Assembly (NCBI GenBank): GCA_964544225.1 | Contig: CAZIZK010000003.1 | Span: 8,419 to 72,418 of the forward strand | Source of the DNA: an uncultured Candidatus Saccharibacteria bacterium | GTDB taxonomy: Bacteria > Patescibacteriota > Minisyncoccia > Phycocordibacterales > UBA9973 | Length of the DNA stretch: 64,000 nucleotides | Reading direction: 5' to 3' | Shown here: one piece after another, positions 1,934 through 63,003 of the stretch | Layout: each line of letters begins with the position of its first letter | Position numbering within the stretch: the first letter of the stretch is position 1 | The notes under the pieces: generated by a model | Databases searched by the model: none | What the model saw: the letters and a program-made list of their open reading frames with translations, nothing else | What the model was told of the DNA's origin: nothing | Translations under genes and position numbers: made by a program

Positions 1934-1934
1934 T

Positions 1935-5113: not shown

Positions 5114-5133
5114 GGGAATTATGTAAAAAATCC

Positions 5134-5301: not shown

Positions 5302-5304
5302 CGA

Positions 5305-5336
5305 AGGCGTCTGAATCATCAGACGCCTTTTTTATT
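5305..5336 (+). terminator. Rho-independent terminator downstream of the tRNA
   Basis: The stem GGCGTCTGA/TCAGACGCC with loop ATCA is followed by TTTTTTATTT. The stop codon of uvrB on the opposite strand sits in the T-run. Confidence 0.6.
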
Positions 5337-8635: not shown

Positions 8636-8662
8636 TCGTAATTCGTAATTTTTAATTCGTAA

Positions 8663-16616: not shown

Positions 16617-16919
16617 TTATATAGTCTTTGGAGTTTCAGCACATTCACCTTTGCAAGTCTTACATGGGCAACCAAATATACTAACAAGTGTACATACACC
16701 TACAACAACATATATGATAGCCTCAAGTGTTGGCATAGATCCTAGTAACAAATTCACAACGTTCAAATTTGTACCAATAAGCATACCCACACCTGTAAGA
16801 CCCCAGTTCAAACCACCAACCATTACCAATACATTGGCAATCTTTGCAAGGACACACTTATGACAGTGGCATCCACCCTTTCCATCGATAGCACAAACAC
16901 CGTTATTACAATTACACAT
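16617..16919 (-). CDS. DUF378-family small membrane protein with Cys/His-rich termini
   Basis: The central membrane region contains the GGLNWGLTGVG motif typical of DUF378. It is flanked by an N-terminal CNCNNGVC..CHCHKC cluster and a C-terminal CPCKTCKGEC cluster. Confidence 0.7.
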   Translation of the reverse strand: MCNCNNGVCAIDGKGGCHCHKCVLAKIANVLVMVGGLNWGLTGVGMLIGTNLNVVNLLLGSMPTLEAIIYVVVGVCTLVSIFGCPCKTCKGECAETPKTI

Positions 16920-43560: not shown

Positions 43561-43590
43561 TAAATAACCCTTTATTTCAAAGGGTTATTT
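43561..43590. terminator. Terminator at the end of the surface-protein operon
   Basis: TAAATAACCCTTT-ATTTC-AAAGGGTTATTT. The stop codon of CDS 43572..45164 lies in the loop. Confidence 0.5.
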
Positions 43591-46558: not shown

Positions 46559-47438
46559 GACGCTTCTTCTTGTTCTTCTTTACAAACAATAGCGCCAATA
46601 GGACAATAATAAATACAATAACAGTAGTACCCAGTATTGCGTATAATGGCGGATATATAACTACTGTTGCAAAATTATAAGCAAAGTCAGTAGCCTTAAC
46701 TTTAATTATACTCTGATGTGACTGATCTTCCAATAGATATGGGCTCGATACAGCCTTCCATTGACCCAACAATCCCTCCTTTACCATTACATCCTTCATG
46801 CCTACCCCTCTATCTATCGCCTGAAATATAAGTGTGTATTTATTATCGAAAAGATTTTCGTCTTTTTCTACACTTGCTATCAATTCCGGCTTGTTCGTAT
46901 CATCTATTTTATAATCTGTATTAATTGATTCAGAATTTGTATCTATTAGCACAGAAGTAGACTCGATATTATTAATAGTTCCTAAGCCGTCGTTTTGAGT
47001 TACAACAATATTCTGTGTAGATACCAGAGCATTACCAACTTTTGTAGACTTAAATACTAATCGCATTATATTGCCAGACTTTTTCTTTTCACTATTGATA
47101 GTATCTATCACTCCTGTAAATCCGTTCGGTATAATACCTGAGAAATTAATTGTATCTCCTATTGTATTTGGGTGTATGAGCCATGCACGTACTATGGACT
47201 GACCATCTTCTACACGAACAAGCTTTATTGTATCGTTATTTGGTATTGATACGGAACCCTCGATACCATTGATATCATTGCCTTGTACATCGAGCATTAC
47301 ATCTATGTAGAACTCACTACCTACACCAACGCTCTTGTTGGGTATATCGAAATACACACTTGGGTTAGCCGCCTTTACCAGGCTAGGTACAAGAGTAAAG
47401 ATACAGACTAATAAAATTGTATAAAATATTTTTTTCAT
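46542..47438 (-). CDS. Membrane-anchored surface protein with a cohesin-like domain (paralog 1 of 3)
   Basis: It has a signal peptide, a cohesin-like module (GSEFYIDVMLDVQGNDINGIEGSVSIP...MRLVFKSTKVGNALVS), a C-terminal transmembrane helix and the basic tail KKNKKKRHAKIK. Confidence 0.55.
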   Translation of the reverse strand: MKKIFYTILLVCIFTLVPSLVKAANPSVYFDIPNKSVGVGSEFYIDVMLDVQGNDINGIEGSVSIPNNDTIKLVRVEDGQSIVRAWLIHPNTIGDTINFSGIIPNGFTGVIDTINSEKKKSGNIMRLVFKSTKVGNALVSTQNIVVTQNDGLGTINNIESTSVLIDTNSESINTDYKIDDTNKPELIASVEKDENLFDNKYTLIFQAIDRGVGMKDVMVKEGLLGQWKAVSSPYLLEDQSHQSIIKVKATDFAYNFATVVIYPPLYAILGTTVIVFIIVLLALLFVKKNKKKRHAKIK

Positions 47439-47439
47439 A

Positions 47440-48780
47440 TTATCCTGTCCAGTTATAAGCTAATATACTAAAGTCGACTAGTGACACCTTCTTATCATTA
47501 TTCAAATCAACTTTGGCTGGAACATTTGGCTTTGTATACCAATAAGCCATAATAGAGAAGTCGATCAAGTTCACATGCCCATCACAGTTCAAGTCTCCAC
47601 GTAGTGTCGAACAATCCAATGGGTCTTTCTTTATGTTTTGATTACCAACATTGAATGCTACTGCTGTACCATAGTTACTAACCTCGCCACTTTTTGCCGC
47701 TTTGGATTTGGTAAGGTGACCCCCTATTTCAAGAGGTGCTGTATCAAAGTTCAATAGATATACTCCATTATTATCCGATGGTACGTTCTTGAAATATTCC
47801 TGTTCAGAGTGGACCGAGATAGTAACTTGTGCATTTGGCACACTCTGACCAAATATAACAACATTGTCGCCTTGCTTTACCTCCTTCTTGTCTGTATCGA
47901 TAGTTGGTGATAGGAATATACTACCAATATTTATAGTTGCACCTTCGGTAATATATACAGGGAAAGAGAATGATGCGGACTTCTTGTTCTGTGAGTCTGT
48001 CCCATATACTGAGAAAGTATATGTACTGGATGAGAGCCCAGATAGGCTAACACTAAAGTTGGCTTGTGGGTCTGCTATTGTACTTGCCACGATCACACCA
48101 TCTTTGAGTATATACACCTTCGATAGTGGAAAAGCGCGTCCAGAAAAGTTAACTACACCTGTACCCCCTGTTGTTGTGGTTCCTCCACCTCCGCCGCCTC
48201 CTCCGCCGCCTCCGCCTCCTGCACCACCTGCACCCGCCGGTGTAGATGATACAGCTGCAGACTCACTGAGGAGCAACCCTGAGGCATAAGCCCTTACTTT
48301 AAAATAATACGTAGTACCATTCGTTAACCCAGTCACCGTATTACCTAGTACATTACCAACTACACTATATGTAAATGGCCCAGATGGTGATGTAGATACA
48401 CCCACAGAATAGCTTGTAACATTCGCCAGTACCCCTACCGACGCTGTCCAAGATAAAGCAACTGTGGTGTTCCCTGCTGTTGTAATCAATACCGGAGTTG
48501 TAGCTGTCGGGAAATACAAAAACCCTGCATTCTGAGCAAAGCTTGTACTTGAACTCTCGCCATTATCTAACTGCCCAGAACTAGATAAATATCGGAAGCT
48601 TGCAGATGATGCTTCACCACCCTCTATGATAGAATTTACAGGATTCTCCATCTCAAAGCTTGTACTAGTAAAGTCGGCTCGTGATATAGCAAAAAACAAC
48701 CCCATCAAAACAAAGATAGAAAATATTTGTAAAACTAATTTTCTATTCTGTTTTTCTTTAGAGTTGTTTTTCATAACCAT
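47440..48780 (-). CDS. Secreted protein with a fibronectin-III domain, a poly-Gly linker and a type-I dockerin
   Basis: The FN3 signature is TGLTNGTTYYFKVRAY. The linker is a G16 tract. The C-terminal duplicated calcium-binding dockerin repeats are DLNCDGHVNLIDFSIMAYWY and DLNNDKKVSLVDFSILAYNW. Confidence 0.7.
   Translation of the reverse strand: MVMKNNSKEKQNRKLVLQIFSIFVLMGLFFAISRADFTSTSFEMENPVNSIIEGGEASSASFRYLSSSGQLDNGESSSTSFAQNAGFLYFPTATTPVLITTAGNTTVALSWTASVGVLANVTSYSVGVSTSPSGPFTYSVVGNVLGNTVTGLTNGTTYYFKVRAYASGLLLSESAAVSSTPAGAGGAGGGGGGGGGGGGGTTTTGGTGVVNFSGRAFPLSKVYILKDGVIVASTIADPQANFSVSLSGLSSSTYTFSVYGTDSQNKKSASFSFPVYITEGATINIGSIFLSPTIDTDKKEVKQGDNVVIFGQSVPNAQVTISVHSEQEYFKNVPSDNNGVYLLNFDTAPLEIGGHLTKSKAAKSGEVSNYGTAVAFNVGNQNIKKDPLDCSTLRGDLNCDGHVNLIDFSIMAYWYTKPNVPAKVDLNNDKKVSLVDFSILAYNWTG
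48181..48240. repeat. (GGNGGN)n simple repeat that encodes the poly-Gly linker
   Basis: TCCTCCACCTCCGCCGCCTCCTCCGCC... lies inside CDS 47440..48780. Confidence 0.6.
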
Positions 48781-48821
48781 ATATATGCACTACTGACTAA
48801 GCTTATGCCAGATTTACATTA

Positions 48822-49250
48822 TTATGGCTTCTTCTCTGCTGTAGTAGTTGTAGTCTTTGCTGTTGTAGTAGGTGTTGTAGCTTTTGTTGTGCCTGCACCA
48901 ATATTTAGTGGAGCTATGTTCAAAACTTTATTTAATGTTGGGCTGTACAAGATAGCCTTCTTTGCTTGAGCATATATTAGAACCTTGTCACCTTGTTGTG
49001 CGCTTGCAAAGAAAGGTTGGTCCTTCAATGCAGCTAAGTCTGTAACTGTAGCTATTGTTGGTGTCTCACCTTCTGGCAATACTGTAACAGTCGCTACTTT
49101 TGCAACTAGATCTTTTACTTCTTTCTGAGCAATTGCTTGTGGATTCTTCTTCAAAGTATTCCACTGATAGTAGAAGTAACCTGACAATGCAAGTGCTACT
49201 ATAGCAAAAGCTGGAGCTACCATGTTTATAATCTTTTGTTTGTTCATCAT
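48822..49250 (-). CDS. Hypothetical membrane-anchored protein of 142 aa with a Thr-rich tail
   Basis: It has an N-terminal transmembrane helix and the C-terminal tract TTKATTPTTTAKTTTTTAEKKP. It lies between the giant gene and the dockerin gene. Confidence 0.45.
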   Translation of the reverse strand: MMNKQKIINMVAPAFAIVALALSGYFYYQWNTLKKNPQAIAQKEVKDLVAKVATVTVLPEGETPTIATVTDLAALKDQPFFASAQQGDKVLIYAQAKKAILYSPTLNKVLNIAPLNIGAGTTKATTPTTTAKTTTTTAEKKP

Positions 49251-49377
49251 TTTTAGTATATTTTTAAATTAATAATTACAACACAAAGGGCCAAAACCCT
49301 ATATAAGTATCATTATAGTTTATATAAACACAGAGAGCAATACTTTACAACGTGTTAGATATTAGATATGGTAACGT

Positions 49378-52300
49378 TTAAAAAAATGATTTAAATGCAC
49401 TTGCAAGAGCAAAGAATCTTGGTATATAGCTAGGTGTAAACTTCCATAACATAAAGCCGATATCTCCGCCACCACCTCCGCCTTGGTCTCCACCACTATT
49501 TGGATTATCAGGGTTTCCACTACCTTCAGAGCCCCCTCCACCTCCGCCTTGGCCGCCGCCGCCAACATCAGCATCAGGTGTCGCTGATGACTCTACCCCA
49601 CCTCCACCGCCACCATATGACCTAAATGTAAATGTCCATCCAGTATTTGTAGACCCACCAGTTGTGTCATCCACACTACCAGGACCAGCATGTATTGATA
49701 TAAAGTTACTGTTACCAGATGCCGCACTGTCACGCAAAGATATGAATTCACTTGTATAAGCACCATAACCAGCAGTGGTTGGTGCTAAGTATAGGTTCCA
49801 ATCTGTACCATTGCTTGTACTGTTTAATGTAATCAAACTATCTGATGTTCCTTTTACATCCCATTCTTTTACTGTCTGAGTACTACTTGCAGTAAACTTC
49901 ACTGTATGTGGTGGATTAATAACACTGAATTTATTAAACGTATTACTGCCAGATATTATAAAGTCTCCAGTACCAGTCCCTGCAAACACAACATTGTAGA
50001 ATGTTTGTCCTCCTCCTGCAAAAGTCTTGCTACTTGCAGATGAATCAGTTAGGTTAATTGTCTCACCAGTGCGTGTATATGTACCCGATGAATAATTAAA
50101 CACAGTGCCTGCACCTGACAAGTTGATTGTAGAAGAGTTTGGCAAGAATGTTCCTCCGGTAATGCTGATAGCACCCGAGTTCAATGTATAGCTAGAACCA
50201 GATGAAGTATCGAGCGTTCCACCAGATATGGTTGTTGTACCCACAGCTGTAGTTGCACCACCAAGAGTCTTTGTGCCAGATGTTGATATGGTTAAGTTAC
50301 CATATGAAAGAGTCTGATCAATTGTTTGAGTACCTGCAAGATTGTAGTTAACAGTAGAAGTCGCATTGAGTGTCTTTGTGGTGAACCCACTATCATAGCT
50401 ACCAGCAAATGTAGATGCACCTACTGCAATTGTGCCACTTGCCCCAACAGACAATGTATTAGTACCAGTACCTGTGACCAAGTATGTAGCTGGGTTAAAT
50501 GTACCAGCAGTAACTGAAAGTGTTCCAGATGTTGCAAGGGTAATACCAGCACCTAGAGTTTTAGTACCAGTACCTGAACTTGTTAGATTATAAAATACCG
50601 GAGAACCACTATTGATTGTCGCATCACCATTACCTGTTAGGTTAACAGTTGATGTACCCGCATCTAGGTAGCCATTACCAGATCGTGTTACAAGTGTCCC
50701 AGATGTTCCAGCAATAGATATTGTTGAAGCATTTGCTGATAGTGTACCACCATCTAATATTATTTTGTTTGCAGATATTGCATAGTTACTTACTGCATTT
50801 GTATCCAGGCCTCCACCTGTAAGAGTTAGGTTATTGGTAACAGTTAGTGCTTCACCGAGCCTGTTCTGATACGCACCAGATGCAAGTGTTAGGTTGTAGA
50901 ATGATGGTGTACCAGATGCAAGTGTTGTAGGCTCTGTAACACGTATGTATCCAGTACCTGTACTGATACCTTCTGCAAACAAACCTCCAGCAGATGAACC
51001 GTTAGAATTGTACCTTGCTGCCGCACTTACATCACTGTCTGTTTGTGATACCCATGTTACTCCCGCATCATCGGATGTATATATTTGGGTATTTGCTCCA
51101 CCACCTCCGGCATATTCAGTTGCTATTAGGCGCTGGCCATCAGCACTTGAATCTACGGCGAACCAGTTCCTACTTCCTGACGAGTTACTATTTGTTGACC
51201 AGTTCGCACCACTATCTGTGGAAGTATAAATATACCCACCATAAACACCTGCAACCATTTTTGTCCCGTCGTATGATGTGTCTACTCCTTTCCAGTTCAG
51301 GCTTGAACCTCGTGGTGTCCAATTGGCCCCATCATCGGTTGATACATACAACTGACCATTAGAAATAGAAGCAAGCATTGTTGTCCCGTCCCCTGATACT
51401 GAAATATGGTTCCAAGATGTTGAAGTAATAGACCCAGAAGCAGCCCAAGTAACACCATAATCCGTAGAGACATATACTTTATTGCTAACAGTCCAAGTAA
51501 CAGCTGCCAATTTCTTACCATCGGCAGACATTGCAATACCTGAAACTCCAGATACTGTCTGGCGTGATGTCCATGTTGCCCCACCATCATCTGATGTATA
51601 TATAGTAGTTCCTACCGCAACAGCCGCACGTAAACCATCGGCAGACATTGCTGCATCTGATGCATTGCCAGAGGTCAAATTAGATTGAGTCCATGTTAGT
51701 CCATAGTTAGTTGAATAATACATACCACCATTACTAGCATTACCAGCTATCATGCGTGCACCATTTGCAGATACAGCTATCTTTGAGTACACATCTTGTG
51801 TGTAGTTACTCAATACCCATGACAACTGATCACTTTGATTTGTAATATTTACAGTACTTGTGTCACTGTTAAATGTTCCAGAGGATTTTGTAAACAATGT
51901 ACCTTGTGATGCAGTTAGGTTTATAGTTGAATTATTTGCAGTTAGTGTTCCCCCACTTATTACAAGCTTGCCAGTTGTTAATGAATAGTTATTACTAAAT
52001 GATGTATCCAAGGTTCCGTTAGATATTGTTGTTATATTTGTAACAGTAGTGTTGGCACCGAGTGTCTTTGTACCTGTGCCACTAGATGTAAGGTTATAAA
52101 ATGTTGGGGTACCACTATTTACAGTGGCACTACCGTTACCAGTAAGGTCCACAGTGGAACTAGCAGCAGTAAATACACCAGAGTTTGTAAAGAGTGTTCC
52201 ACTTGTACCAGAAAGATTTATAGTTGGTGTACCTGTTGCTGTGATTGTACCGGCGTTTGACAATAATTCTGTTGTGATAGATTCCGTAGAACCACTATCG

Positions 52301-55300
52301 ACTGTTAGTGTATTGCTCGCCAATACAGACAGTGTCTCGCCTGTATATGAATTGCTACCACCTTGGACAAGCAAAGCACCTGTCACAGAAGTATGCATCA
52401 CATCCTCATCGTCGGTGGCTTCGTATTGACCCATATTCGTAACAGATACACTATTGTTTTGGTTACTACCGATTGTTAGAACATTTGTATTTAAAACCAT
52501 TCCTGTAATATTTCCCGAGCCTGCGTATTTAGTTATGGCAGTAGACTCTAGATTGTCGGCAACGTTATCAACCCATGTAGTTATAATATCATTAGTAGTT
52601 GCTGGTACACTGACAGTCCAAGCACTACTACTGATAGTCCCTGTACTTACACCAAGTGTCCCATTGACAGCAACTTTTACAGTTGCTGTATCGTTACCAT
52701 TGGCTGTACCTGAGACAGATATACAGTTAGCTGCTGTCCAAGTCGTGTCCCCTGACAATGTAGAGTTGTACACAGTAACACTAGCACCTGTCATATCGTC
52801 TACATCTAGATTGTGTAGATTGAATGTTCCAGTTCCTGTTGCACCACTAGACCAAGCTCTTGTTGTGTTATTTACACTGGATCGAACCAATATACTATTT
52901 GCCCCATCTACACAGAATGCTCCATTGCCAGAGTTCAAAGTAATAGTACCCGAGTTGGTAACAGTACTAGACAATGTCACAGATCCTGTACCAATATTTT
53001 GCCAGACACCAGATGTTGCAACTGTAACTGCACCAGATGTTAGATTGTTACCTTGATCGTATGTACCGTTATTTATAGTCATTGTGGAACCCAAGGTCAC
53101 CACCCCTGTAGTGCTTAGTGTACCTGTACCGTATTTTACAAGTCCCGATGCTGAACCCATCGTACCAGCTACTGTGATTGTGTAGTCGTTAGTATCAAAT
53201 GTTCCAGCCGATGTCAGTGTCACAGCTCTACCAGACGGTGAAGATATGTCACCCCCTGCTTGAAGTGTTCCACCGTTAAATATTAGCGTATTATTAGCAC
53301 TTTCATCACCCAATGCGCGAGATTTGGTTGCGCGTAAAACTCCAGCTGTGATAGTCGTAGTACCAGTATAAGTATTTGTTCCAGACATTGTAACTGTACC
53401 GGCCGTCGTCTTCGCCACAGCAATTGCTCCACCCAGAATCGCACTGACTGTACCACTCGCAAATGGATAAGATGTTCCAGTCAAAACTCCGCTACTACCT
53501 ATTATAGATCCACTGGTTAATGTAACCGCCCCTACTGTATCGGTAAATGTGGCAATATCAGCAGTACCCCCAGTAACTGTAAGTGCGCCACTTGATAATG
53601 CATTATTAATACCCCAAGCAAGTGTTCCGGCATTTATAGTTGTTGTTCCAGCAAAAGTGTTGGCCGCAGACAGTGTCACAGTCCCCCCAGTGTTCTTTGC
53701 CATAGCGATCGCTGCACCAGCGAGAACTGCACTGATTGTTCCACTCTCTACGGTATATGTTGCTGATGACGTAATAGTTGCCGCCCCACCAGTATTTACG
53801 ATTGAGCCACTTATCAAAGTAACGGCACCTATTATAGTAGTACCTCCTTCAGAATAACCTTTTAGATCCCATGTTCCGCCAGCTACAGTTACAGCATTGG
53901 TTGCCAATGCGTCTGTAATACCATATGCAAGAGTACCACCATTAATACGCACCAAACCTGTGTTAGTAGCTACTGCACTTATAGTAAGTGTTCCAGCACC
54001 ATCTTTTGTCAGAGTTGCCGAGGTTGCTGCCCCATAGACTCCACTTATAGTTGTAGGACCACTTCCATTTATCCATAAATTTATTGAAGCCGCAGCTCCA
54101 ACAGCACCAGTGAATGCAATAGTACCCGCGCCAGAATTAGTAACTATAGAGTTCGCACTTACAGTCACTGCACCAAAGTTAGTAGTACCAGACGCCGCTG
54201 AACTAATCAATGCGCCACCGTTTTTTATACCAGTACCACTAATAGCCAATGTCTCGTATGTAGATGCACCACCCAGATTATATGTAGAAAGATCAAGCAC
54301 TGCTCCGGCAGATACTGTAGTACCTGCACCACTTGTACCCAGTGGTGTATTCGTAGCACCACCACTTGCCCCTAGCTGGAGGACCCCCGTACTCACGGTG
54401 ACAGTTCCAGTAGTAAAACTATTCTGCCCGGCTAAAATGAGCGTGCCCGATCCTTCTTTTACTAAAGAAGTAGAAGTACCCGACCAAACACTTGATGAAG
54501 ACTGAGTAATATTACCCACTGTTACAAATGTTATAGCACGAGTCGAACCTACAATATTACCACTTAGAGTGAATAAGCCAGTTCCATGGTTAGCAAGACG
54601 AGATGTAGCACCAGGAGTAATAACTCCAGAATATGATATTGAATTATTCGAACTATTGATAAATGCTCCAATGCTTGCAATACCTGTTCCGTTAATAGCT
54701 AGGGCTTCAGCAGTACCAAGAGTAAATCCATTCAAATCAAAGACAGCTCCACTTGTGATAGATATTCCACCAGCATTTGTACCAAGTGGCGTATTTGTTC
54801 CATTTCCAGCAGCTCCAAGCTTTAATGTCCCCGCACTAACTGTAGTTGCGCCCGTAAATGTACTTGATGCGCCAGATATTGTCCAAACCCCAACACCGTT
54901 CTTTGTCAAAGTTCCTGATGTTGTATTTAATTGACTTGCAAAAGTTCCATTGCCTGCACCACCAATAGTTAGACCAAAGGTATTACCCGTCATGTTTCCA
55001 GTAGCAGTAATATTGATATCACCATAGTTAGCAATAATAGTACCAGCACCAGTAGTCAGGACAATCTGCCCACTATAAGAAACATTAGTACTTGAAGTAT
55101 TTTGCAAACCACCAGTCGCAAGCGAAGCCCCACTCAGAGTCAAACCTTCAGTAGTGCCAAGAGTATAACCATTTAAATCAAGTGCTGCAGTTGCACCAGA
55201 TACAGTCGTACCACCAGCAGTTGTGCCAAGTGGTGTATTGGTACCGCCACCAGCTGCCCCAAGGCGAAGAGTCCCGGCACTAATAGTAGTTGCCCCTGAA

Positions 55301-58300
55301 TAAGTGTTGTTACCTGACAACATAAAAGCTCCAGCCCCAGCTTTTGCAAAAGTAAAACCTCCGCTTATTATAGCCGATGCAAATGCGTCGTTATCCATGA
55401 GCCCATCACCTATAGTAAATGTTGCATTGGCTCCTAGGCCCAAGTTACCAGTTATTATTGAAGCAACGTTGTTGTTGGCTACAGTTGTAAATGTTCCATT
55501 GCCTGTCAGAGTTCCTGCACCTGTAGCAATAGTACCAGCGTTTATAGAGATAGAGCCCACAGTGTCAGAATTACCATTTAGATTATAAGTACCCCCTACT
55601 ATAGTCACACCTCCACTTGATATGACATTACTTGCACCCGCAAAAAGTGTTGCACCGTTTATAAATGTTGTACCAGTATAAGCGTTAGAGGCACTAAGTG
55701 TAACATTACCAGAACCACTGAGTGTTAATGTGCCAGCTGCTGCAGTATCTAAAATTGCAGATATAGTAGAAGTATTTGTAGAGAGTACAGGTAGTTCCAA
55801 AGCACCAAAACCAATAGTTGTATTAGCTCCGGCAATATTTGTTGCCGAGTTCATTAAAATATTTCCAGACAAAGAGGCAGAGGCCAGTGTAATAGTTGCA
55901 GAAGCATTGGTAATACCATAACCATTTAAAATAAGTGAATTGATACTTACAGTACTTGCTGCCACATCAGCAGTCAATTTTACATTTGTATTTGTAGTTA
56001 ATGTCGTAGAATATTCTCCAGAAAATCCAGCACCGTTTAGTAGACGCAACCCTGTTCCACCTTGGTATGTCACCATATCTGACCCAGTACCACTAAGAGA
56101 TGTGTCCCCAAAGGCACCCTTAATTACACTAACAGTTGTTGAACTAGATGCACCACCGGCACCAGTAAGTGTTGGTGTTGCAGTGAATACTAAAGTAGAT
56201 ATGTTTGCTGCAGATGCTGTTCCTAAACTAGTACCTCGGAATAGTACCGTTGCACCCGCTGTACGAGAAAGACTGGCAAATGTCATAACAGTAGAACCAC
56301 CAGTTCCTGGAGTCACAGTTACAGTGTTATGCCCTGTTGATAAAGTTAGAGCCCCAGTGGTTTCAGAAGACCCAGCCGCAGAATTACCAATAAAATTAAA
56401 ATTACCACCGTTCATAGTTAATGCCAGTGCGTCACCCAAACGACTTGCTACAGCAGTGGTGCTATTATCAAGTGTCAGTGTTCCACCTAGGTTTACTGTA
56501 ATAGTTGTAGCAGTAGCAGAACCTGAGCCACTAATAGTCAGTGTTCCAGCATTAATAGTAGTTGTACTACTAATAGTATTTACACCAGTTAGTGTAACTG
56601 TATTGTTTGTATTTTTAGTAACAGCTACAGCGCCCGCCAGAATTGCACTAACTGTCCCACTTTCCATAGTATATGCAGTTCCGGTCAAAACACCACTAGA
56701 ACTAGTGATAGATCCACCGATCAAAGTAACAGCACCGACAGTGTCACTAAATGTTGACATACTATAAGTCCCACCTTTTACAACCAACGCTCCAGAAGAC
56801 AAGGCGTTGAGTATACCTGCGGCTATTGTTCCTGCATACACTGTTGTTGTTCCAGTATGGCCATTGGCCGCAGTCAGGTTCAGAGTACCAGATCCATCTT
56901 TATATAAAGAACTCGCAGTCGCTGCAATTGCAGCAGAAATAGTTATATTACCAGAGCCACCATATCTTGATTCAAATGCACCACTTTGTATACCACTAAG
57001 TGTTAAAGTTCCTGCACCATTATTTGTAGTTCTACTATCAGTTGCAAGCGCTCGAGTACCCAGATAAGTCGCACCAGCAGCATTACTTGATATCATAGCT
57101 CCACCACCATCTATTCCAAATCCATTGATAGTCAGTGGTTCAGCTAAAGCACTAGAAGAGAATGTAACAAGATCAAGCACTGCCCCACTATAAACAGTAG
57201 TGGCACCAGTAACAACCCCGAGTGGTCCACCTCCGGCTGCATCACTAACACCAAATTTAAATGTTCCCAGGTTTATAGCGGTTGCACCAGTATAAGTACT
57301 CACACCTGAGAGAGTCCAAGTTCCTGTACCAATCTTCACAACACCACCAGTAGTATTACCAACAATACTAGACAGAGTTCCTGTACCAGTACCACCAAGA
57401 GTGAGCGCAAAACCAGCTCCTGAGATTGTTCCAGCAGCGGTCAGATTGATATCACCATTATCAGCTTTGATAGTAGATGCTGCACCGAGCGTAATAAGCC
57501 CTGTAAATGTCACAGCAGAAGCTGAGCTATTTATAATAGCTCCGGATGCAAAGTCTCCCAGCCCGTACCCTACACCGTTTAGGTTTGTTATTGGTTCGGC
57601 TATTCCAAGTGAAAATCCATTTAGATCAAGTCTTGAACCTGTGGCAATAGAGGTGGCACCCCCTGTGGTACCCAGTGGTGAGTTTGACCCGACAGCTATT
57701 GCACCAATCTTTACTGTACCAACACTGATAGTTGTTGCACCTGTATATGACGAGTTACCATTTGAAAGAGTCAGTACCCCTATTCCGTCTTTAACTATAG
57801 TACTAGTACCAGAGCGCACTCCTGAATATTCCAGATTACTAAACCCACCGAAAGTCAATGCAAAGTTCCCAGAAGCATTGCCACTAATAGTCAGTGCTCC
57901 ATAGTCAGCGTTGATACGAGCCGCCGCAGTAAGAGTAAGAGCCCCACTATAGCTAACAGGTGTTGCCGAGCTATTCATGATTGCACCCATGTTACTACTA
58001 CCAGAAGCTCCATACCCTGTTCCTGCCAAAGACGATATTGCTTCTGCTGTTCCCAAAGTAAAACCATTTAGATCTAACGCTCCCCCACTTGCAATAAGTG
58101 TTTCAGAGCCAGCCCCAGCAATACCAAGTGGTGTGTTTGTTCCACCACCAGCAGCACCAAGTTTCAAAATACCGCTGGTAATAGTTGTTGTTCCTGTATA
58201 AGTATTATCGCGAGTAAGCGTTACAACACTATCAGGTGCAGTGTTGGTAGCGATACGTGTTAGTGCAACACCTGTACCATTTATAATAGCACTGACAGTT

Positions 58301-61074
58301 CCCTCGCGAAAAGAGTACGATGTTCCACTTAACACACCAGTGGATCCTGTAATAGTTCCTGTTTGTAAAATTACCGCACCTACACTATCAGTAAAAGTAG
58401 CAATATCGAGTGTTCCACCATTGACCGTCACATTACCAGAAGATATAGCATTACTTATAGAATAAAGTAGTGTTCCTTGGTTTACAGAAGTAAGCCCTGT
58501 ATAGTTTTTCGCAGAAGAAAATTCCAAAGTACCTGCACCACTTTTAGTAAGACCAGTAGACCCTGTGATATTTGAAGAGATTGTTAGATTTACTGGATTT
58601 AATACATGCAATTCCACAGCACCACCTGCAATTGTAGTGTTGGCCCCAGCAATAGTGTTACTGGAAACTAAGTTCAATATATTACCTGAGGTAAGTGTGA
58701 TAGTTTGTGATGTTCCTGCATCAGTTATATCGGCTGAGCCACTTAGTATAAGTGAGTTAATAGAAGATGTAGCTGCTACTGTAGTGGTTGATAGTTTTAC
58801 ATTGGCATTGGTTGCCAATGTAAATGCATATTCACCGGAGAACCCAGCCCCATTTAGTAGGCGCAAACCATTACTATTACCCACACCATATGTAACCATA
58901 TCAGTACCAGTGCCACTTGTCGAATCATCACCAAATGCTCCGGCAATGATACTAATAGTTGTAGAGTTCGCAAGGCCAGCACTACCTGTCAAAGTTGGGG
59001 CTGTTTTGAACAATAAAGTCGAAACATTGGCAGCAGGAGTTGAGCCAAATGAATTACCTCGGAATAGTATGGATGAGCCCGCCGTTCGCGTGAGTGACGC
59101 GAACTGCATCGTCGTGGACCCTCCCGACCCGGGGTCAATAGTTATAATATTATTACCTGATTGCGTGGCTATACCAGATGTTAGTACACCCGCACTTTCG
59201 TCCATATCTGCCGAGCTTGAACCTATCATTTCAAATTCACCACCGTTCATTGTCAGTGCCAATGAATCAGCCAGGCGGTCAACTACAGTTGATGAGCTAC
59301 TATTATCTAGTGTCAGTTTACCACCCGAGCTTATAGTCATAGTAGTTGAAAGAGGCATTGCCCCACTACCACTGAGCACCAAATTACCATAGTTAATATT
59401 TGTCGCGCCGGTAAAGTTATTGAAGGCTTGTAGAGTTAGTGTACCAGCATCCTGCTTGGTCAACGTTGCACTTGTACCATATATAGGTGCATCCGAGGCA
59501 AAAGTAGTATTACCCAAACCACCAATAGTAAGGCCGAATGTGACTGCTGAAATACCTTTGTCATCAATAGTAAGTGTAGTACCAGTATCTGCCTCTATCA
59601 TGGCTGCCGCACCCATTGTGAGCAAGCCTGTCAAAGTATTACTACCGGTAGTATTATGAATAGCAGCACTGTATAAATGCCCTGTTCCAGAAAATGTAAT
59701 ATATTCAGGGATTGAAAGACCTGTTCCGTCTATCTGCAGTGTTGCACCAGCAGATACAGTAGTAATACCATCGATCAAACCTAAAGAAAGACTATCTTGA
59801 ATTTTAAGTATACCAGCAGTTACTGTCGTAGCACCGGTGTACTGGTTTGGCCTTGTTAGTGTCACTGTACCTGTTGTACTTTTTGCCAATGTTCCAGCTT
59901 GACCTGCAATAATTGCACTGATTGTGCCTTGGTAAACTACCCATGATCCACTACTAAGCATTCCAGTAGATCCGGTAATTGTTCCCGAAGCTAAATCAAG
60001 GGTACCAAGTGTCACAGTACCCACCATGTCTGAATATGTTGCAATGTCCAGTGTCCCCCCTGTAACAAACACAGTTCCTGATAAAATTGCATTATCTGTT
60101 CCATAAAGAAGTGTTCCAGCATTTATAGTTGTAGCGCCTGTATAAGTATTTGGGAAATTATATGTCAGTGTACCTGCACCATTTTTCGTAACAGTACTAA
60201 CAGCTGTAGCAATAGGTGCTGTTGAGTATGTAACATTCCCCGCACCATCTATCACCAATGGGAATGCCCCAGCCATACCACCTTTTAATGTTAGTGTTCC
60301 AGAGTCTGACGCTATTTCGGTACCACCACCCGATGATAGGGTGATGAGTCCACCATAACTATTACTACCACTAATATTGCGAAGTGCGCCACCTCCAGAA
60401 ACACCGTACCCGCGCAGTGCCAATGCTTCATAACTAATATTTATATCTCCTTGCAGTTCCAATGCTGCACCACCGACAACTTCCGTACCTGCCAAGTATG
60501 TTCCAAGAGATCTATTGTTTCTTGCATTAACAACACCCACATTTATTTTTAAAATTCCACCAAAAGTATTGGCACCAGATAATATCAAAGTTCCAGTTCC
60601 TTCTTTGTTGATACCGCCCACACCAGCAATACGCCCACTGATAGTTAGACTCTCGGCAGTATTAGTAACAAAAATATCTCGAGTTGCATCGAGGCGAATA
60701 TCCAGTGCAATAGTGTTACCACCAGAAGAAGAACTATCTGTAATACCAGCAAGTCCTGCACCAAGGATTAATGGATTTCCAGAAAGGGTGTAACCACTAG
60801 CAGAGATAGTAATCGAATTGATAATTGTATTTTCAGTAAGATCATTTGTGTTGGAAAGATTTGATGCAGTGCCAGGAAATAATAAATCATCCCCCGTAAC
60901 AGGAGCAACACCACCTGACCAGTTAGAACCCACTGACCATGCACCACTTGTTGTACCTGTCCAAGTCCTTGTTGCAGCATATGCATCATGAAGATTAAAA
61001 ACAAAGAAAGAAAAACAAGCAATAGAAAAAATTGCTAATAATTTAATTATTTTATTGATTTGATTTTTAATCAT
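49378..61074 (-). CDS. Giant secreted surface protein of 3898 aa. It is built from autotransporter-associated (PATR-like) beta-strand repeats plus a BNR/Asp-box beta-propeller, and carries a C-terminal Gly-rich region followed by a hydrophobic tail.
   Basis: It has a signal peptide (MIKNQ...AYAATRTW). It contains dozens of degenerate repeats of about 30 aa of the type GAGTLTLSGANTYTGATTINAGTL. At about 51040..51760 it contains 6 to 7 S-x-D-x-G-x-T-W blades (YYSTNYGLTWT, YTSDDGGATWT, YVSTDYGVTWA, YVSTDDGANWT, YTSTDSGANWS, YTSDDAGVTWV). The C-terminus is a Gly-rich region followed by FMLWKFTPSYIPRFFALASAFKSFF. Confidence 0.85.
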   Translation of the reverse strand: MIKNQINKIIKLLAIFSIACFSFFVFNLHDAYAATRTWTGTTSGAWSVGSNWSGGVAPVTGDDLLFPGTASNLSNTNDLTENTIINSITISASGYTLSGNPLILGAGLAGITDSSSSGGNTIALDIRLDATRDIFVTNTAESLTISGRIAGVGGINKEGTGTLILSGANTFGGILKINVGVVNARNNRSLGTYLAGTEVVGGAALELQGDINISYEALALRGYGVSGGGALRNISGSNSYGGLITLSSGGGTEIASDSGTLTLKGGMAGAFPLVIDGAGNVTYSTAPIATAVSTVTKNGAGTLTYNFPNTYTGATTINAGTLLYGTDNAILSGTVFVTGGTLDIATYSDMVGTVTLGTLDLASGTITGSTGMLSSGSWVVYQGTISAIIAGQAGTLAKSTTGTVTLTRPNQYTGATTVTAGILKIQDSLSLGLIDGITTVSAGATLQIDGTGLSIPEYITFSGTGHLYSAAIHNTTGSNTLTGLLTMGAAAMIEADTGTTLTIDDKGISAVTFGLTIGGLGNTTFASDAPIYGTSATLTKQDAGTLTLQAFNNFTGATNINYGNLVLSGSGAMPLSTTMTISSGGKLTLDNSSSSTVVDRLADSLALTMNGGEFEMIGSSSADMDESAGVLTSGIATQSGNNIITIDPGSGGSTTMQFASLTRTAGSSILFRGNSFGSTPAANVSTLLFKTAPTLTGSAGLANSTTISIIAGAFGDDSTSGTGTDMVTYGVGNSNGLRLLNGAGFSGEYAFTLATNANVKLSTTTVAATSSINSLILSGSADITDAGTSQTITLTSGNILNLVSSNTIAGANTTIAGGAVELHVLNPVNLTISSNITGSTGLTKSGAGTLEFSSAKNYTGLTSVNQGTLLYSISNAISSGNVTVNGGTLDIATFTDSVGAVILQTGTITGSTGVLSGTSYSFREGTVSAIINGTGVALTRIATNTAPDSVVTLTRDNTYTGTTTITSGILKLGAAGGGTNTPLGIAGAGSETLIASGGALDLNGFTLGTAEAISSLAGTGYGASGSSNMGAIMNSSATPVSYSGALTLTAAARINADYGALTISGNASGNFALTFGGFSNLEYSGVRSGTSTIVKDGIGVLTLSNGNSSYTGATTISVGTVKIGAIAVGSNSPLGTTGGATSIATGSRLDLNGFSLGIAEPITNLNGVGYGLGDFASGAIINSSASAVTFTGLITLGAASTIKADNGDINLTAAGTISGAGFALTLGGTGTGTLSSIVGNTTGGVVKIGTGTWTLSGVSTYTGATAINLGTFKFGVSDAAGGGPLGVVTGATTVYSGAVLDLVTFSSSALAEPLTINGFGIDGGGAMISSNAAGATYLGTRALATDSRTTNNGAGTLTLSGIQSGAFESRYGGSGNITISAAIAATASSLYKDGSGTLNLTAANGHTGTTTVYAGTIAAGILNALSSGALVVKGGTYSMSTFSDTVGAVTLIGGSITSSSGVLTGTAYTMESGTVSAILAGAVAVTKNTNNTVTLTGVNTISSTTTINAGTLTISGSGSATATTITVNLGGTLTLDNSTTAVASRLGDALALTMNGGNFNFIGNSAAGSSETTGALTLSTGHNTVTVTPGTGGSTVMTFASLSRTAGATVLFRGTSLGTASAANISTLVFTATPTLTGAGGASSSTTVSVIKGAFGDTSLSGTGSDMVTYQGGTGLRLLNGAGFSGEYSTTLTTNTNVKLTADVAASTVSINSLILNGYGITNASATITLASASLSGNILMNSATNIAGANTTIGFGALELPVLSTNTSTISAILDTAAAGTLTLSGSGNVTLSASNAYTGTTFINGATLFAGASNVISSGGVTIVGGTYNLNGNSDTVGSISINAGTIATGAGTLTGNGTFTTVANNNVASIITGNLGLGANATFTIGDGLMDNDAFASAIISGGFTFAKAGAGAFMLSGNNTYSGATTISAGTLRLGAAGGGTNTPLGTTAGGTTVSGATAALDLNGYTLGTTEGLTLSGASLATGGLQNTSSTNVSYSGQIVLTTGAGTIIANYGDINITATGNMTGNTFGLTIGGAGNGTFASQLNTTSGTLTKNGVGVWTISGASSTFTGATTVSAGTLKLGAAGNGTNTPLGTNAGGISITSGAVFDLNGFTLGTAEALAINGTGIASIGAFINSSNNSISYSGVITPGATSRLANHGTGLFTLSGNIVGSTRAITFVTVGNITQSSSSVWSGTSTSLVKEGSGTLILAGQNSFTTGTVTVSTGVLQLGASGGATNTPLGTSGAGTTVSAGAVLDLSTYNLGGASTYETLAISGTGIKNGGALISSAASGTTNFGAVTVSANSIVTNSGAGTIAFTGAVGAAASINLWINGSGPTTISGVYGAATSATLTKDGAGTLTISAVATNTGLVRINGGTLAYGITDALATNAVTVAGGTWDLKGYSEGGTTIIGAVTLISGSIVNTGGAATITSSATYTVESGTISAVLAGAAIAMAKNTGGTVTLSAANTFAGTTTINAGTLAWGINNALSSGALTVTGGTADIATFTDTVGAVTLTSGSIIGSSGVLTGTSYPFASGTVSAILGGAIAVAKTTAGTVTMSGTNTYTGTTTITAGVLRATKSRALGDESANNTLIFNGGTLQAGGDISSPSGRAVTLTSAGTFDTNDYTITVAGTMGSASGLVKYGTGTLSTTGVVTLGSTMTINNGTYDQGNNLTSGAVTVATSGVWQNIGTGSVTLSSTVTNSGTITLNSGNGAFCVDGANSILVRSSVNNTTRAWSSGATGTGTFNLHNLDVDDMTGASVTVYNSTLSGDTTWTAANCISVSGTANGNDTATVKVAVNGTLGVSTGTISSSAWTVSVPATTNDIITTWVDNVADNLESTAITKYAGSGNITGMVLNTNVLTIGSNQNNSVSVTNMGQYEATDDEDVMHTSVTGALLVQGGSNSYTGETLSVLASNTLTVDSGSTESITTELLSNAGTITATGTPTINLSGTSGTLFTNSGVFTAASSTVDLTGNGSATVNSGTPTFYNLTSSGTGTKTLGANTTVTNITTISNGTLDTSFSNNYSLTTGKLVISGGTLTANNSTINLTASQGTLFTKSSGTFNSDTSTVNITNQSDQLSWVLSNYTQDVYSKIAVSANGARMIAGNASNGGMYYSTNYGLTWTQSNLTSGNASDAAMSADGLRAAVAVGTTIYTSDDGGATWTSRQTVSGVSGIAMSADGKKLAAVTWTVSNKVYVSTDYGVTWAASGSITSTSWNHISVSGDGTTMLASISNGQLYVSTDDGANWTPRGSSLNWKGVDTSYDGTKMVAGVYGGYIYTSTDSGANWSTNSNSSGSRNWFAVDSSADGQRLIATEYAGGGGANTQIYTSDDAGVTWVSQTDSDVSAAARYNSNGSSAGGLFAEGISTGTGYIRVTEPTTLASGTPSFYNLTLASGAYQNRLGEALTVTNNLTLTGGGLDTNAVSNYAISANKIILDGGTLSANASTISIAGTSGTLVTRSGNGYLDAGTSTVNLTGNGDATINSGSPVFYNLTSSGTGTKTLGAGITLATSGTLSVTAGTFNPATYLVTGTGTNTLSVGASGTIAVGASTFAGSYDSGFTTKTLNATSTVNYNLAGTQTIDQTLSYGNLTISTSGTKTLGGATTAVGTTTISGGTLDTSSGSSYTLNSGAISITGGTFLPNSSTINLSGAGTVFNYSSGTYTRTGETINLTDSSASSKTFAGGGQTFYNVVFAGTGTGDFIISGSNTFNKFSVINPPHTVKFTASSTQTVKEWDVKGTSDSLITLNSTSNGTDWNLYLAPTTAGYGAYTSEFISLRDSAASGNSNFISIHAGPGSVDDTTGGSTNTGWTFTFRSYGGGGGGVESSATPDADVGGGGQGGGGGGSEGSGNPDNPNSGGDQGGGGGGDIGFMLWKFTPSYIPRFFALASAFKSFF

Positions 61075-61231
61075 TTATACAACAACAGGACACAACAACA
61101 TTTATATATACATATTATATCGCATGGTAAAAGTAGTGTAAATCTAAAATAATCATTAAAACACATATAATTTCAGGCTAAATAATAGTGCTTTAGAAAC
61201 CAAATTCATATATAATATGTGTAGATAATAT

Positions 61232-62023
61232 ATGGCAAAGATAAAGCAAAAAGTTAATATTACAAACGCTGAGGAGGCTAAAATTCGTCGAGTTTGGAGT
61301 AACGAGAGGGATCGATGGTACTTCTCTATAACAGATGTTATGGGTGTATTGACCAACAGTGTAGATGCTCGCAACTATTGGAAGGCTCTAAAAAGTCGTT
61401 TAAAGACAAATCATAATCAGTTGGTTACTGATTGTAACCAACTGAAGATGGAAGCCAACGATGGCAAGTCGTACCTAGTAGATACAGCAGATTCAGATAC
61501 AATAATAAAAATTATACAGATAATAGCACCATATAATACCCCTGCTTTTAGAGCCTGGTTCGACCATATTGAGGTGGTAAATTCCATAAAAATAGACCAG
61601 GAAAATACAACGAGCTCTGATATTATAAAAGAAGAAGGATTTACTTCAGAAACAGGTGCAGATGAGTTATCCACAACTTTGGAACCAAGTATCGATATTT
61701 ATGAAAATCACAACAATATTATCGTTCAGGTCATGCTCGCTGGTGTATCCCCCGACAAGATAATCATTGCAGTAAATATGCACACGCTGACTATAAAAGG
61801 TGAGCGTCTTCGCCCAATAAATCTTTCAAGTAAAAATATAAACGTAGAATATTTATACAATGAACTTCAGTGGGGTCATTTCTATCGTGAGATAAATTTT
61901 GATACACTTATCGACGTTGACCAAGTTGAAGCAACAACACAAAGAGGTCTACTAAATATAAAGTTGCCTAAAATAGATCAAGATAAAAACAGGTTCATAA
62001 AAATAAAATCACTTGGTGAGTAA
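61232..62023 (+). CDS. Fusion protein with an N-terminal Bro-N/DinD-like domain and a C-terminal Hsp20/alpha-crystallin domain
   Basis: The N-terminal region is RRVWSNERDRWYFSITDVMGVLTNSVDARNYWKALK...NQLVTDCNQL. The C-terminal ACD is IDIYENHNNIIVQVMLAGVSPDKIIIAVNMHTLTIKGER...HFYREINFDTLIDVDQVEATTQRGLLNIKLPK. Confidence 0.65.
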   Translation: MAKIKQKVNITNAEEAKIRRVWSNERDRWYFSITDVMGVLTNSVDARNYWKALKSRLKTNHNQLVTDCNQLKMEANDGKSYLVDTADSDTIIKIIQIIAPYNTPAFRAWFDHIEVVNSIKIDQENTTSSDIIKEEGFTSETGADELSTTLEPSIDIYENHNNIIVQVMLAGVSPDKIIIAVNMHTLTIKGERLRPINLSSKNINVEYLYNELQWGHFYREINFDTLIDVDQVEATTQRGLLNIKLPKIDQDKNRFIKIKSLGE

Positions 62024-62049: not shown

Positions 62050-63003
62050 TTATTTACTTACAGCATACGCACGTTCCGATATTTCTTTCATCAACCCTAC
62101 AGCCCAATTCCTTGTTTCCAGACTACTATCTTTACCTTTGATAATTACGGTCAACATATATGGCTTATCATTTACATACACGATACCTGAGTCGGCAAAA
62201 ATATTGTATTGCACATTCTCGCCATATTTATGGGCAAACTTTACACCACTTGGTATACCTTGGGAAAGATAGTCTTTGAACACAGCTTGCGACATTAGTT
62301 CCAATATCTTTTCGGAATTTTCTGGTTCTAGATAATTCGAAGTATATAATACTCGCAATATGCGAGTATACTCCTTCGCAGATATAAAACCTTTTTCATT
62401 GTACAAATCTTCAAGCCCAGTTGCCTGTTGGAAAGAAATATAATCTGGGATATCTAATTGACGCCTAAAAATATTTTGAGCTGTATTGTCAGAATTTAAT
62501 AACAATTCTTCCAATAGATACTCGACTGTCAATTTGCGAGATCCTATACTTTTATATAATTCTCCAGAATCAGATGATACATCGGCCTCGGTAGCTTTTA
62601 ACTCTTGATCCCATTTTAACTTACCATCCTCTACCTTTTTAACTATCAGGATTGCTTGTACAAGCTTTGACAATGACGCCGGGAATAGGCGCAAATCCTT
62701 ACCAACAGATATGTTGGAGCCTGTATTGATATTTTCATAATATATAGATACATTGTCAGGGTACTTCTCTTCTAAATCATGCAAATAGACTCGCAAATCC
62801 TGAATGTTAGTAACATATGCATCTTTTGGCATAAGTTCACGCATTGGGTCTAGTAATTCATATTGCGACTTTGGCACGCTATTACTACACATAGAAATAA
62901 CCAAGACTGTTAGAATAATACAAGTAAACACAGCAAGAATCCGAAGGAATCTCTTTTGTGACTTTATCTTTTTATTTGTGACATTATTTATATTGTTCGA
63001 CAT
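62050..63003 (-). CDS. Membrane-anchored serine hydrolase of the class A beta-lactamase or low-MW PBP type
   Basis: It has an N-terminal transmembrane helix and the motifs SLSK (SxxK), SDN (LLNSDNTAQN) and HKYG (a KTG-like triad). Confidence 0.6.
   Translation of the reverse strand: MSNNINNVTNKKIKSQKRFLRILAVFTCIILTVLVISMCSNSVPKSQYELLDPMRELMPKDAYVTNIQDLRVYLHDLEEKYPDNVSIYYENINTGSNISVGKDLRLFPASLSKLVQAILIVKKVEDGKLKWDQELKATEADVSSDSGELYKSIGSRKLTVEYLLEELLLNSDNTAQNIFRRQLDIPDYISFQQATGLEDLYNEKGFISAKEYTRILRVLYTSNYLEPENSEKILELMSQAVFKDYLSQGIPSGVKFAHKYGENVQYNIFADSGIVYVNDKPYMLTVIIKGKDSSLETRNWAVGLMKEISERAYAVSK

Follow-up and report, generated by a model that had tools for sequence, protein, structure and literature searches.

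A giant fibre protein of an uncultured Saccharibacteria bacterium with a conserved, fast-evolving C-terminal linker and tail

The 64,000-nucleotide (nt) stretch of DNA analysed here (the window; contig CAZIZK010000003.1 of an uncultured Candidatus Saccharibacteria bacterium) encodes, on the minus strand at positions 49378..61074, an intact protein of 3898 amino acids (aa). We read it as a genuine giant fibre on the cell surface of Candidatus Saccharibacteria, within the Patescibacteria or Candidate Phyla Radiation (CPR). Its final 78 residues consist of a Gly-rich linker and a 29-aa peptide. Comparison with homologues indicates that linker and tail constitute a conserved, lineage-specific and fast-evolving C-terminal module of one giant-protein family. 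The module is undescribed, being absent from Pfam and NCBIfam, and sits on an already known kind of protein. We propose, tentatively, that it serves in non-covalent attachment or docking at the cell-proximal end of the fibre.

The giant gene is intact

The giant gene is an uninterrupted reading frame of 3898 codons with an ATG start and a TAA stop. The identical 3898-aa protein is encoded on two contigs, the 124.6-kb NCBI genome contig and a 26.8-kb Logan assembly of SRR13208889. Tandem Repeats Finder detects no tandem repeats within the gene, and its dispersed direct DNA repeats are merely 60–78% identical, none of them near-identical; assembly or repeat collapse is therefore unlikely. The repeats are old and degenerate, and as far as the DNA itself can tell, collapse is rejected. 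A frameshift or assembly artefact at the 3' end is ruled out, because the other two frames extend only trivially and three close strains from other samples and sequencing runs share the position of the stop codon (L092, L093, and L094; L094 is identical to the window). Accordingly, the single large open reading frame (ORF) called in an earlier inspection of the letters alone, hereafter the sequence-only reading, holds. The gene and its protein have the following features.

61114..61142, minus strand: promoter-like site TTTACA-17-TATAAT, about 40 nt 5' of the ATG, 11 of 12 consensus positions matched (a consensus match only)
60976..61074, minus strand: Sec-type signal peptide read from the sequence, residues 1–33, with a basic Lys-rich n-region, hydrophobic LLAIFSIACFSFFVF, and a putative cleavage site between AYA and A
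52906..60612, minus strand: stalk of autotransporter-associated beta-strand repeats (PATR), residues 155–2723, about 20 strong units (Pfam, NCBIfam, and an iterated hidden Markov model, HMM)
51829..52905, minus strand: Thr/Ser/Gly-rich solenoid-like repeats, residues 2724–3082 (by sequence), with a weak PATR-like unit at 3019–3049
50914..51828, minus strand: predicted seven-bladed BNR/Asp-box beta-propeller, Ycf48/sortilin-like, residues 3083–3387, inserted in the stalk, with six Asp-boxes
50062..50913, minus strand: solenoid-like repeats, residues 3388–3671 (likewise), with a weak PATR-like unit at 3618–3646
49615..50061, minus strand: terminal beta-solenoid domain, residues 3672–3820 (KTFAGGGQTF...STNTGWTF), from homologues and AlphaFold2 strands
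49468..49614, minus strand: flexible Gly-rich linker, residues 3821–3869, 46% Gly over 3829–3869, with a predicted local distance difference test (pLDDT) score below 45
49381..49467, minus strand: conserved C-terminal module, G-D-I-G-F plus a 24-aa hydrophobic/aromatic tail with F-A-L-A-S-A and F-K-S-F-F elements, from alignments of 13–17 tails

A conserved module at the C-terminus

The 25-aa tail FMLWKFTPSYIPRFFALASAFKSFF corresponds to residues 3874–3898 (window 49381..49455), and both this aromatic and hydrophobic tail and the Gly-rich region before it are exactly as the sequence-only reading quoted them. The tail is not confined to one protein. It recurs in at least 19 distinct giant proteins, all relatives of one family, in which a Gly run and D-x-G-[FY] are followed by 24–46 hydrophobic or aromatic residues. 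An exhaustive HMMER search with the last 227 residues of the window protein yields 1225 homologues at E ≤ 1e-3. Among the best 150 of these, 11 proteins bear the tail, with a variable spacer, the Gly run and D-x-G-[FY], and 24–35 mostly hydrophobic or aromatic residues. Additional tails are found in L006, L007, L027, L050/51, and L084, in two tandem genes of L079, and as strain variants in L092 and L093.

In the alignment of the tails, G-D-x-G-[FY] is nearly invariant, [FL]-x-[IL]-A-S-[AV] is frequent, and the tails close with a [FL]-[KR]-x-[FL]-[FL]-like end. The window tail holds all three elements and is the shortest version. The elements are kept in proteins whose terminal domains are merely 39–60% identical.

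The position of the linker is filled in homologues by variable Gly or Cys-module spacers; the window protein has the Gly-rich linker only. The Cys spacers lie between terminal domain and tail and consist of C-x-D-G-x-Q-N-G-[DN]-E-T-G-x-D-T-G-G-R-C repeats or of an L-P-x-C-S-D-x-I-D-N-D-x-D...C-H-L-D-G-[DN]-L module. Spacers with Cys modules occur in P0013, P0014, P0027, L006, L007, and L084, and in P0045, P0058, and P0067.

The tail is found once per locus, apart from one tandem pair. In L079, the tail-bearing giant genes at 1..3645 and 3703..9888 both end in ...GGGDSGFLFKP[RH]LMLASVPEVFEI..., and their terminal domains are a Cys-containing variant (DSGC...CW.F) that the A3-based HMM misses. 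Tail-less ends are found as well. In L024, L036, L043/L045, and L047, the gene upstream of the small-protein gene described below stops directly after a Gly-rich stretch (...GGGGSGGGGSEAP, ...GGSGGGESP, ...GGGGGGTP, and ...GGGGQSGGGDSE), at the length of a would-be tail-cleaved product. The ends in L036 and L047 carry a W-x-F/L motif like that at the end of the terminal domain and may thus belong to relatives of the giant protein.

The tail is neither a known sorting signal nor a transmembrane anchor

The sequence-only reading held that the tail matches no known sorting signal, and the family models agree. NCBIfam, including the models for LPXTG, PEP-CTERM, GlyGly-CTERM, and the type IX secretion system (T9SS), gives nothing at E ≤ 10 on the last 60 and 227 residues or on P0001 and P0004, two homologues, except for one EspB match without meaning (E 5.5); Pfam gives PATR and BNR only. 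The giant protein resembles Gram-positive LPXTG/sortase adhesins in having a Sec signal, a long repetitive stalk, and a low-complexity spacer before a short C-terminal signal-like element. However, it is not an LPXTG/sortase substrate, since the last 80 residues contain no LPXTG-like pentapeptide and there is neither a transmembrane helix nor a basic tail, and no sortase gene was found in the window or the conserved cluster. PEP-CTERM, GlyGly-CTERM, and related exosortase or rhombosortase signals are excluded by the same nil result in NCBIfam and by the lack of a transmembrane segment. The C-terminal domain of T9SS substrates, a beta-sandwich of ~70–100 aa, finds no Pfam or NCBIfam match either, and the tail is only 25–29 aa long and predicted to be disordered.

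The tail is rich in Phe, Leu, and Ile and located at the extreme C-terminus, as a plain transmembrane anchor would be. This explanation is effectively refuted by two hydrophobicity scales with internal positive controls. For 13 of 13 tails, the best 19-residue Kyte-Doolittle mean is 0.57–1.41 (window 0.83), and the summed Hessa free energy (dG) is +5.4 to +11.4 kcal/mol (window +9.3). The C-terminal anchors of three neighbouring genes, which serve as the controls, reach -4.1 to -5.1 on the Hessa scale. In addition, Lys, Arg, Asn, Asp, and Pro are scattered through the tails. AlphaFold leaves linker and tail unstructured, with a pLDDT below 45 for both and below 35 for the tail, and no enrichment of beta-periodicity is seen in the tails relative to shuffled sequences. 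Thus, the tail peptide is predicted to be too polar to span a membrane and to have no structure on its own.

A further alternative is that the tail is a processed sorting signal, cleaved by an enzyme near the Gly run or D-x-G-[FY] that attaches the protein to wall or lipid, as in LPXTG/sortase or PEP-CTERM/exosortase systems. The nearly invariant short motif between a flexible linker and a hydrophobic segment would fit such a signal, as would the putative relatives that end exactly after the Gly linker and so resemble a processed form, and the two tandem tail-bearing genes in L079. The tail, however, lacks both a stretch that could span the membrane and a basic cluster at its end, and no known model matches it. 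Moreover, when every six-frame ORF in 0.98 Mb of related DNA (92 loci and the window) is scanned with an HMM of the tail, only the C-termini of giant solenoid proteins are matched. A profile of 13 tails against 5.8e9 proteins returns nothing at E ≤ 10 (87 candidates), a search of very low power for a ~35-aa motif. Scanning the genes of the window and of the conserved clusters brought up no sortase-, exosortase-, or rhombosortase-like gene, and no protease, transpeptidase, or other recognisable sorting enzyme among the conserved neighbours, although the enzyme and tail tests cover ~7% of this genome and have limited power. The window and L002 both have a beta-lactamase/S11-like gene nearby, which is not invariably adjacent. 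We consider a processed signal quite unlikely.

The sequence-only reading had suggested an uncharacterised sorting or anchoring signal and had called for a search for the tail on other secreted proteins, along with a co-occurring protease or transpeptidase. Within the loci covered, the search leads to one giant family and to no conserved enzyme. Neither of the two findings that would have refuted the suggestion by the terms of that reading is seen: the tail recurs in other proteins, and it is not a plain transmembrane anchor. What survives of the suggestion is a tail that is real, recurrent, and unlike known signals; its restriction to one family, its occasional absence, the lack of an associated enzyme, and its fast evolution speak against the rest. 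A general sorting system is not supported, and a family-specific anchoring or docking peptide is plausible.

Stalk, propeller, and terminal domain

Behind the signal peptide, the bulk of the protein is a PATR stalk. PF12951 (PATR) matches the whole protein at 1.3e-44 (150.3 bits, cut-off 27) in 16 stretches in Pfam, and TIGR02601 matches at 1.5e-56 (187.5 bits, cut-off 19.85) in NCBIfam. An iterated HMM built from the giant protein detects 28 units, ~20 of them strong, over residues 155–3646, all but two inside 155–2723. The ~2300 residues of N-terminal passenger-type repeats seen in the sequence-only reading are thus PATR of slightly larger extent, and the beta-helix or fibre that it predicted is supported by the PATR matches. 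The same type of solenoid repeat stands on both sides of the propeller.

The giant protein shares with known PATR proteins (PF12951, TIGR02601) the same repeat at high significance and a long Thr/Gly/Ser-rich beta-solenoid stalk behind a Sec signal peptide. It differs from them in having no beta-barrel translocator or outer-membrane targeting domain, ending instead in the Gly linker and the short peptide. The Saccharibacteria lineage is regarded as monoderm. A type V autotransporter C-terminal beta-barrel is not found, as the whole-protein Pfam scan gives PATR and BNR only. Nor is the protein an RTX adhesin of the type I secretion system, as it has a Sec-type signal peptide and no RTX/HemolysinCabind Pfam match. 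An ABC exporter is present in some syntenic loci only (L002, and L006 and L007, where ABC-exporter-like C-termini were read by eye), and none is encoded in the window.

The propeller is predicted from motifs, family models, and a structural model. Exactly six Asp-boxes of the pattern S/T-x-D/N-x-G/A-x-T/N-W lie at residues 3121, 3161, 3203, 3245, 3285, and 3334; together they span residues 3121–3341 (window 51052..51714) at a spacing of 40–49 residues. In the scan of the whole protein the BNR match falls below the Pfam cut-off (0.0023). When residues 3080–3392 are scanned alone, BNR matches at 5.6e-13 (47.2 bits, cut-off 27) and Sortilin-Vps10 at 1.3e-10 (41.1 bits, cut-off 33). The region has 1308 homologues, mostly ~450–540-aa proteins annotated as 'photosystem II stability/assembly factor-like' (Ycf48-like), some of them fused to prepilin N-termini. 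An AlphaFold2 model on 43 sequences reaches a pLDDT of 84.6 and a predicted template modelling (TM) score, pTM, of 0.85. Its top Foldseek match is Ycf48 (5oj3_A, E 9.6e-14, TM 0.70), and its neighbours are Ycf48, GH74, DAIP, and seven-bladed WD40 proteins (E ~1e-13, TM 0.65–0.75). The model is therefore that of a closed seven-bladed propeller of the Ycf48/sortilin/GH74 kind.

The sequence-only reading had proposed a BNR propeller of 6 to 7 blades of the sialidase kind. The propeller stands, with six Asp-boxes and seven predicted blades, but the Ycf48/sortilin/GH74 kind replaces the sialidase kind: no sialidase (GH33) Pfam family is matched, and the sole sialidase match in the PDB covers 58 residues at E 6.9e-4. 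Like the propellers of Ycf48/HCF136, sortilin Vps10, GH74, and DAIP, the domain has ~40-aa Asp-box blades and a seven-bladed fold with a TM of ~0.7 to Ycf48. Unlike them, it is inserted in a fibre and, the Asp-boxes apart, matches no catalytic family (sialidase, GH74). P0013, a homologue of 3668 aa, has its Asp-boxes at about residues 1172–1343, as compared with residues 3083–3387 for the propeller of the window protein; because its position differs between the two proteins, the propeller behaves as a mobile insert.

The terminal beta-solenoid domain is the region common to the 1225 homologues, ~150 aa running from KTFAGGGQTF to GNNTGWxF. It has no family match in Pfam, NCBIfam, or PHROGs. AlphaFold predicts stacked beta-strands (pLDDT 80–90), and a fold search of the C-terminal model against the PDB gives nothing significant (best E 4.7). 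Distant relatives of the domain are found in 300–1300-aa proteins whose neighbouring genes have matches in the PHROG families for tail fibre, minor tail, and tape-measure proteins. Loci with such relatives include L008, L009, and L095–L103, and nine phage-type loci lie in IMG/VR viral contigs. The ~110–150-aa terminal solenoid domain of these phage tail-module proteins is homologous to that of the giant protein (E 1e-13 to 1e-25, 38–54% identity). However, the phage proteins, many of which close with a short hydrophobic stretch of the 'GFFxLF' type while others end inside the domain, carry neither the Gly linker nor the D-x-G-[FY] tail.

A small anchored protein is encoded next to the tail

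Downstream of the giant gene, and in the same direction, lies a cluster of genes for anchored and dockerin- or cohesin-type proteins.

48822..49250, minus strand: small conserved 142-aa protein with an N-terminal membrane anchor, an ~80-aa domain, and a Thr-rich end; first gene downstream of the giant gene
47440-48780, minus strand: 446-aa fn3/Big_6/dockerin protein
46542-47438, minus strand: cohesin-type protein of 298 aa, C-terminal transmembrane anchor
45161-46558, minus strand: paralogous cohesin-type protein of 465 aa, C-terminal transmembrane anchor
43572-45164, minus strand: third paralogous cohesin-type protein, 530 aa, C-terminal transmembrane anchor

The gene of the small protein lies directly 3' of the tail-bearing gene in all eight of eight independent loci, at a distance of 4–130 nt (HMM E 1e-34 to 1e-72). 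With L027, L050/51, L079, and L084, the count rises to 12 of 12 independent loci; in L079 the small gene follows the second of the tandem genes. The linkage persists where the cohesin and dockerin genes are missing. The small protein has a mean column identity of 61%, and a PDB profile search with it gives chance-level matches only.

The co-directional cluster (43572..49250, minus strand) provides one dockerin for three cohesin-type modules, and its synteny extends from the window to L002, L004/L005, L006, and L007. In loci that include the flanks, the genes come in the order of a divergent Bro-N/HSP20 gene, sometimes a beta-lactamase/S11-like gene, the giant gene, the gene for a 119–156-aa N-anchored protein, the fn3/Big/dockerin gene, and the three cohesin-type genes. 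In its clustering of the giant gene with genes for a single dockerin protein and for three cohesin-type proteins that have membrane anchors, the locus resembles cohesin-dockerin surface assemblies. The giant protein itself, however, has no Pfam match to a dockerin or cohesin domain, and use of the cohesin-type anchors by its tail is speculation.

On the other side of the giant gene, the gene at 61232..62023 (plus strand), located between the beta-lactamase-like and giant genes, encodes a weak Bro-N-like N-terminal region fused to an HSP20/alpha-crystallin domain. In L002, L003, and L004, too, the giant gene has an HSP20-family gene upstream of it that lies on the opposite strand. The gene at 62050..63003 (minus strand) encodes a Beta-lactamase2/Peptidase_S11-like protein with an N-terminal anchor and a serine-peptidase fold; no evidence was found that it acts on the tail. 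A homologue lies directly upstream of the giant gene in L002, and in several metagenome loci the small gene is immediately preceded by a beta-lactamase-like gene.

A second giant gene (63033..64000, minus strand) continues past the window and is at least 1771 aa long in L001 (2..5317). It has no hydrophobic tail and ends at 63033 in the acidic, low-complexity, Pro/Glu/Thr-rich ...EPAQDQAPEPTPNE, the commonest type of C-terminus upstream of the small gene in the metagenome loci.

Elsewhere in the window, 16617..16919 (minus strand) encodes a 100-aa DUF378 membrane-domain protein (1e-10) with Cys-rich ends (MCNCNNGVCAIDGKGGCHCHKC... and ...CPCKTCKGEC). Its gene adjoins genes for a DsbA-like thioredoxin (16979-17716) and a family-2 glycosyltransferase (15260-16531).

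Strain variation of the tail

Close strains differ in the tail. The tails of L092 and L093 read DIGFWLWKFFIPSYVSRVFALASV[TA]HTIF. Between the window and L093, the terminal domain is 97% identical, the last 458 residues are 91% identical, and the tail is 56% identical. Together with the 127-nt spacer that follows it, the DNA encoding the tail forms a hypervariable block (49251..49467, minus strand) of ~65% identity, compared with 90–100% in the flanking coding DNA (L092, L093, and L094). Conserved islands in the spacer, TTGTAAAGTATTGCTCT and CTATAAT, may represent a promoter for the downstream genes.

Such divergence could mean that the tail serves no specific function and simply prolongs the Gly-rich linker as a disordered and largely unconstrained extension. 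In favour of this explanation are the low pLDDT of the tail, the gap in identity between tail and adjacent domain, a length of anywhere between 24 and 46 residues behind G[FY], and the existence of putative tail-less relatives. Against it, G-D-x-G-[FY], A-S-A, and the aromatic/hydrophobic end persist between distant relatives, and the reading frame and stop position are kept in four strains. In addition, the codon changes in the tail comprise 9 synonymous and 10 non-synonymous ones, so that synonymous changes are over-represented relative to sites; the rough ratio of non-synonymous to synonymous rates (dN/dS), our estimate from these counts, is ~0.4. The alignments thus suggest some purifying selection on frame, length, composition, and a few motif positions of a tail that otherwise may change very fast or be swapped as a block with the spacer. 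We regard an unconstrained tail as unlikely, if still a serious competitor.

How the fibre may be held at the cell surface

The attachment that we propose would proceed as follows. The giant fibre, probably of an epibiotic or host-dependent Saccharibacterium, would be exported by Sec via its N-terminal signal peptide, which would then be cleaved. About 2600 residues of PATR-type beta-solenoid would form a long stalk, and the propeller inserted in it is the likely ligand-binding module. Linker and peptide would attach the base of the fibre non-covalently to the cell's own envelope, with the Gly-rich linker crossing the wall and the peptide docking on a membrane-bound partner or lying in the membrane interface. 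The best candidates for the partner would be the small N-anchored protein encoded directly downstream and the cohesin-type anchors of the same cluster.

Several observations weigh against this proposal. First, the DNA of the tail is as divergent as the intergenic spacer behind it (65.5% versus 65.6%), as expected for an unconstrained extension. Second, the helical amphipathicity of the tails exceeds that of shuffles only slightly (mean z 0.6; p < 0.04 for 5 of 13 tails; p = 0.28 for the window), and an amphipathic helix lying in the plane of the membrane, for which these values are weakly positive, is not adopted here. Third, the domain of the small protein is unchanged between close strains while 10 tail residues differ, which disfavours tight co-evolution of tail and small protein. 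Fourth, the linkage of the small gene to the tail does not hold in reverse. Scanning the metagenome collection with the small protein gave 397 relatives, and the 80 loci examined contain 69 distinct upstream gene ends, of which ~5 carry the tail. At least 15 of the 69 belong to large proteins with acidic Pro/Glu/Thr-rich low complexity, and ~4 stop right after a Gly-rich linker; the remaining upstream neighbours include beta-lactamase-like and cohesin-type genes. The tail therefore predicts the small gene, and the reverse does not hold. This result weakens the case for the small protein as a receptor dedicated to the tail, and the protein looks more like a general member of the surface-protein cluster.

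Finally, the protein might be held at its N-terminus by a signal peptide that is not removed, which would make the C-terminus the distal end. Terminal domain and tail would then contact the host, as do the tips of phage tail fibres. The terminal domain is indeed shared with proteins from phage tail-gene neighbourhoods and IMG/VR contigs, the fast divergence of the tail between strains would fit a host-facing element, and the N-terminal hydrophobic stretch is fairly long; its best 19-mer has a dG sum of +1.1, between those of the tails and those of real transmembrane segments. However, a canonical signal-peptidase site, A-Y-A followed by A, stands behind the hydrophobic core, and the variable position of the BNR propeller gives no polarity. 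A distal C-terminus therefore seems improbable to about the same degree as a processed sorting signal.

Non-covalent docking of linker and tail at the cell-proximal end remains the reading that we put forward. A bolder version of it is that the tail and the small N-anchored protein form an undescribed, Patescibacteria-specific system that holds giant host-binding fibres on a monoderm envelope, either through peptide-in-groove docking or through proteolytic processing at the Gly linker, with rapidly diverging tail variants that reflect strain-specific pairing or host-driven selection. This version we hold to be very doubtful.

Implications for Saccharibacteria

Giant beta-helical exoproteins of Patescibacteria have already been interpreted as adhesins (PMC11809585), and surface adhesins are needed for the epibiotic growth of the Saccharibacterium Southlakia epibionticum (PMC10633639). 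The giant protein, for which an adhesin function would be in keeping with these reports, resembles FhaB/beta-helix exoproteins such as those of Patescibacterium danicum (PMC11809585) in being longer than 3000 aa, repeat-rich, lineage-specific, fast-evolving, and encoded by ultrasmall host-dependent bacteria. It appears to differ in its repeats, which are PATR rather than FhaB/DUF2341, and in the BNR insert and the Gly-linker/tail module. Southlakia epibionticum has an essential dockerin protein, SEML1_0315, but an orthologous cluster is rejected, since the gene of this protein stands in an unrelated neighbourhood; the supplementary tables of PMC10633639 contain no PATR, dockerin, or cohesin Pfam accessions.

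If the tail is merely the end of a family-specific linker, the giant protein would be an ordinary case of a class, that of giant adhesin-like proteins, which has been reported from the phylum before. Saccharibacteria attach to host bacteria, and the molecules that join the two cells are mostly unknown. With its small anchored protein, dockerin protein, and three cohesin-type anchors, the cluster of the giant fibre represents a concrete candidate for an attachment apparatus. The ~35-residue tail HMM is a simple handle for finding the family, and the module poses a testable question: by what means surface proteins of megadalton scale are kept on monoderm CPR cells that do not use LPXTG-type signals for them.

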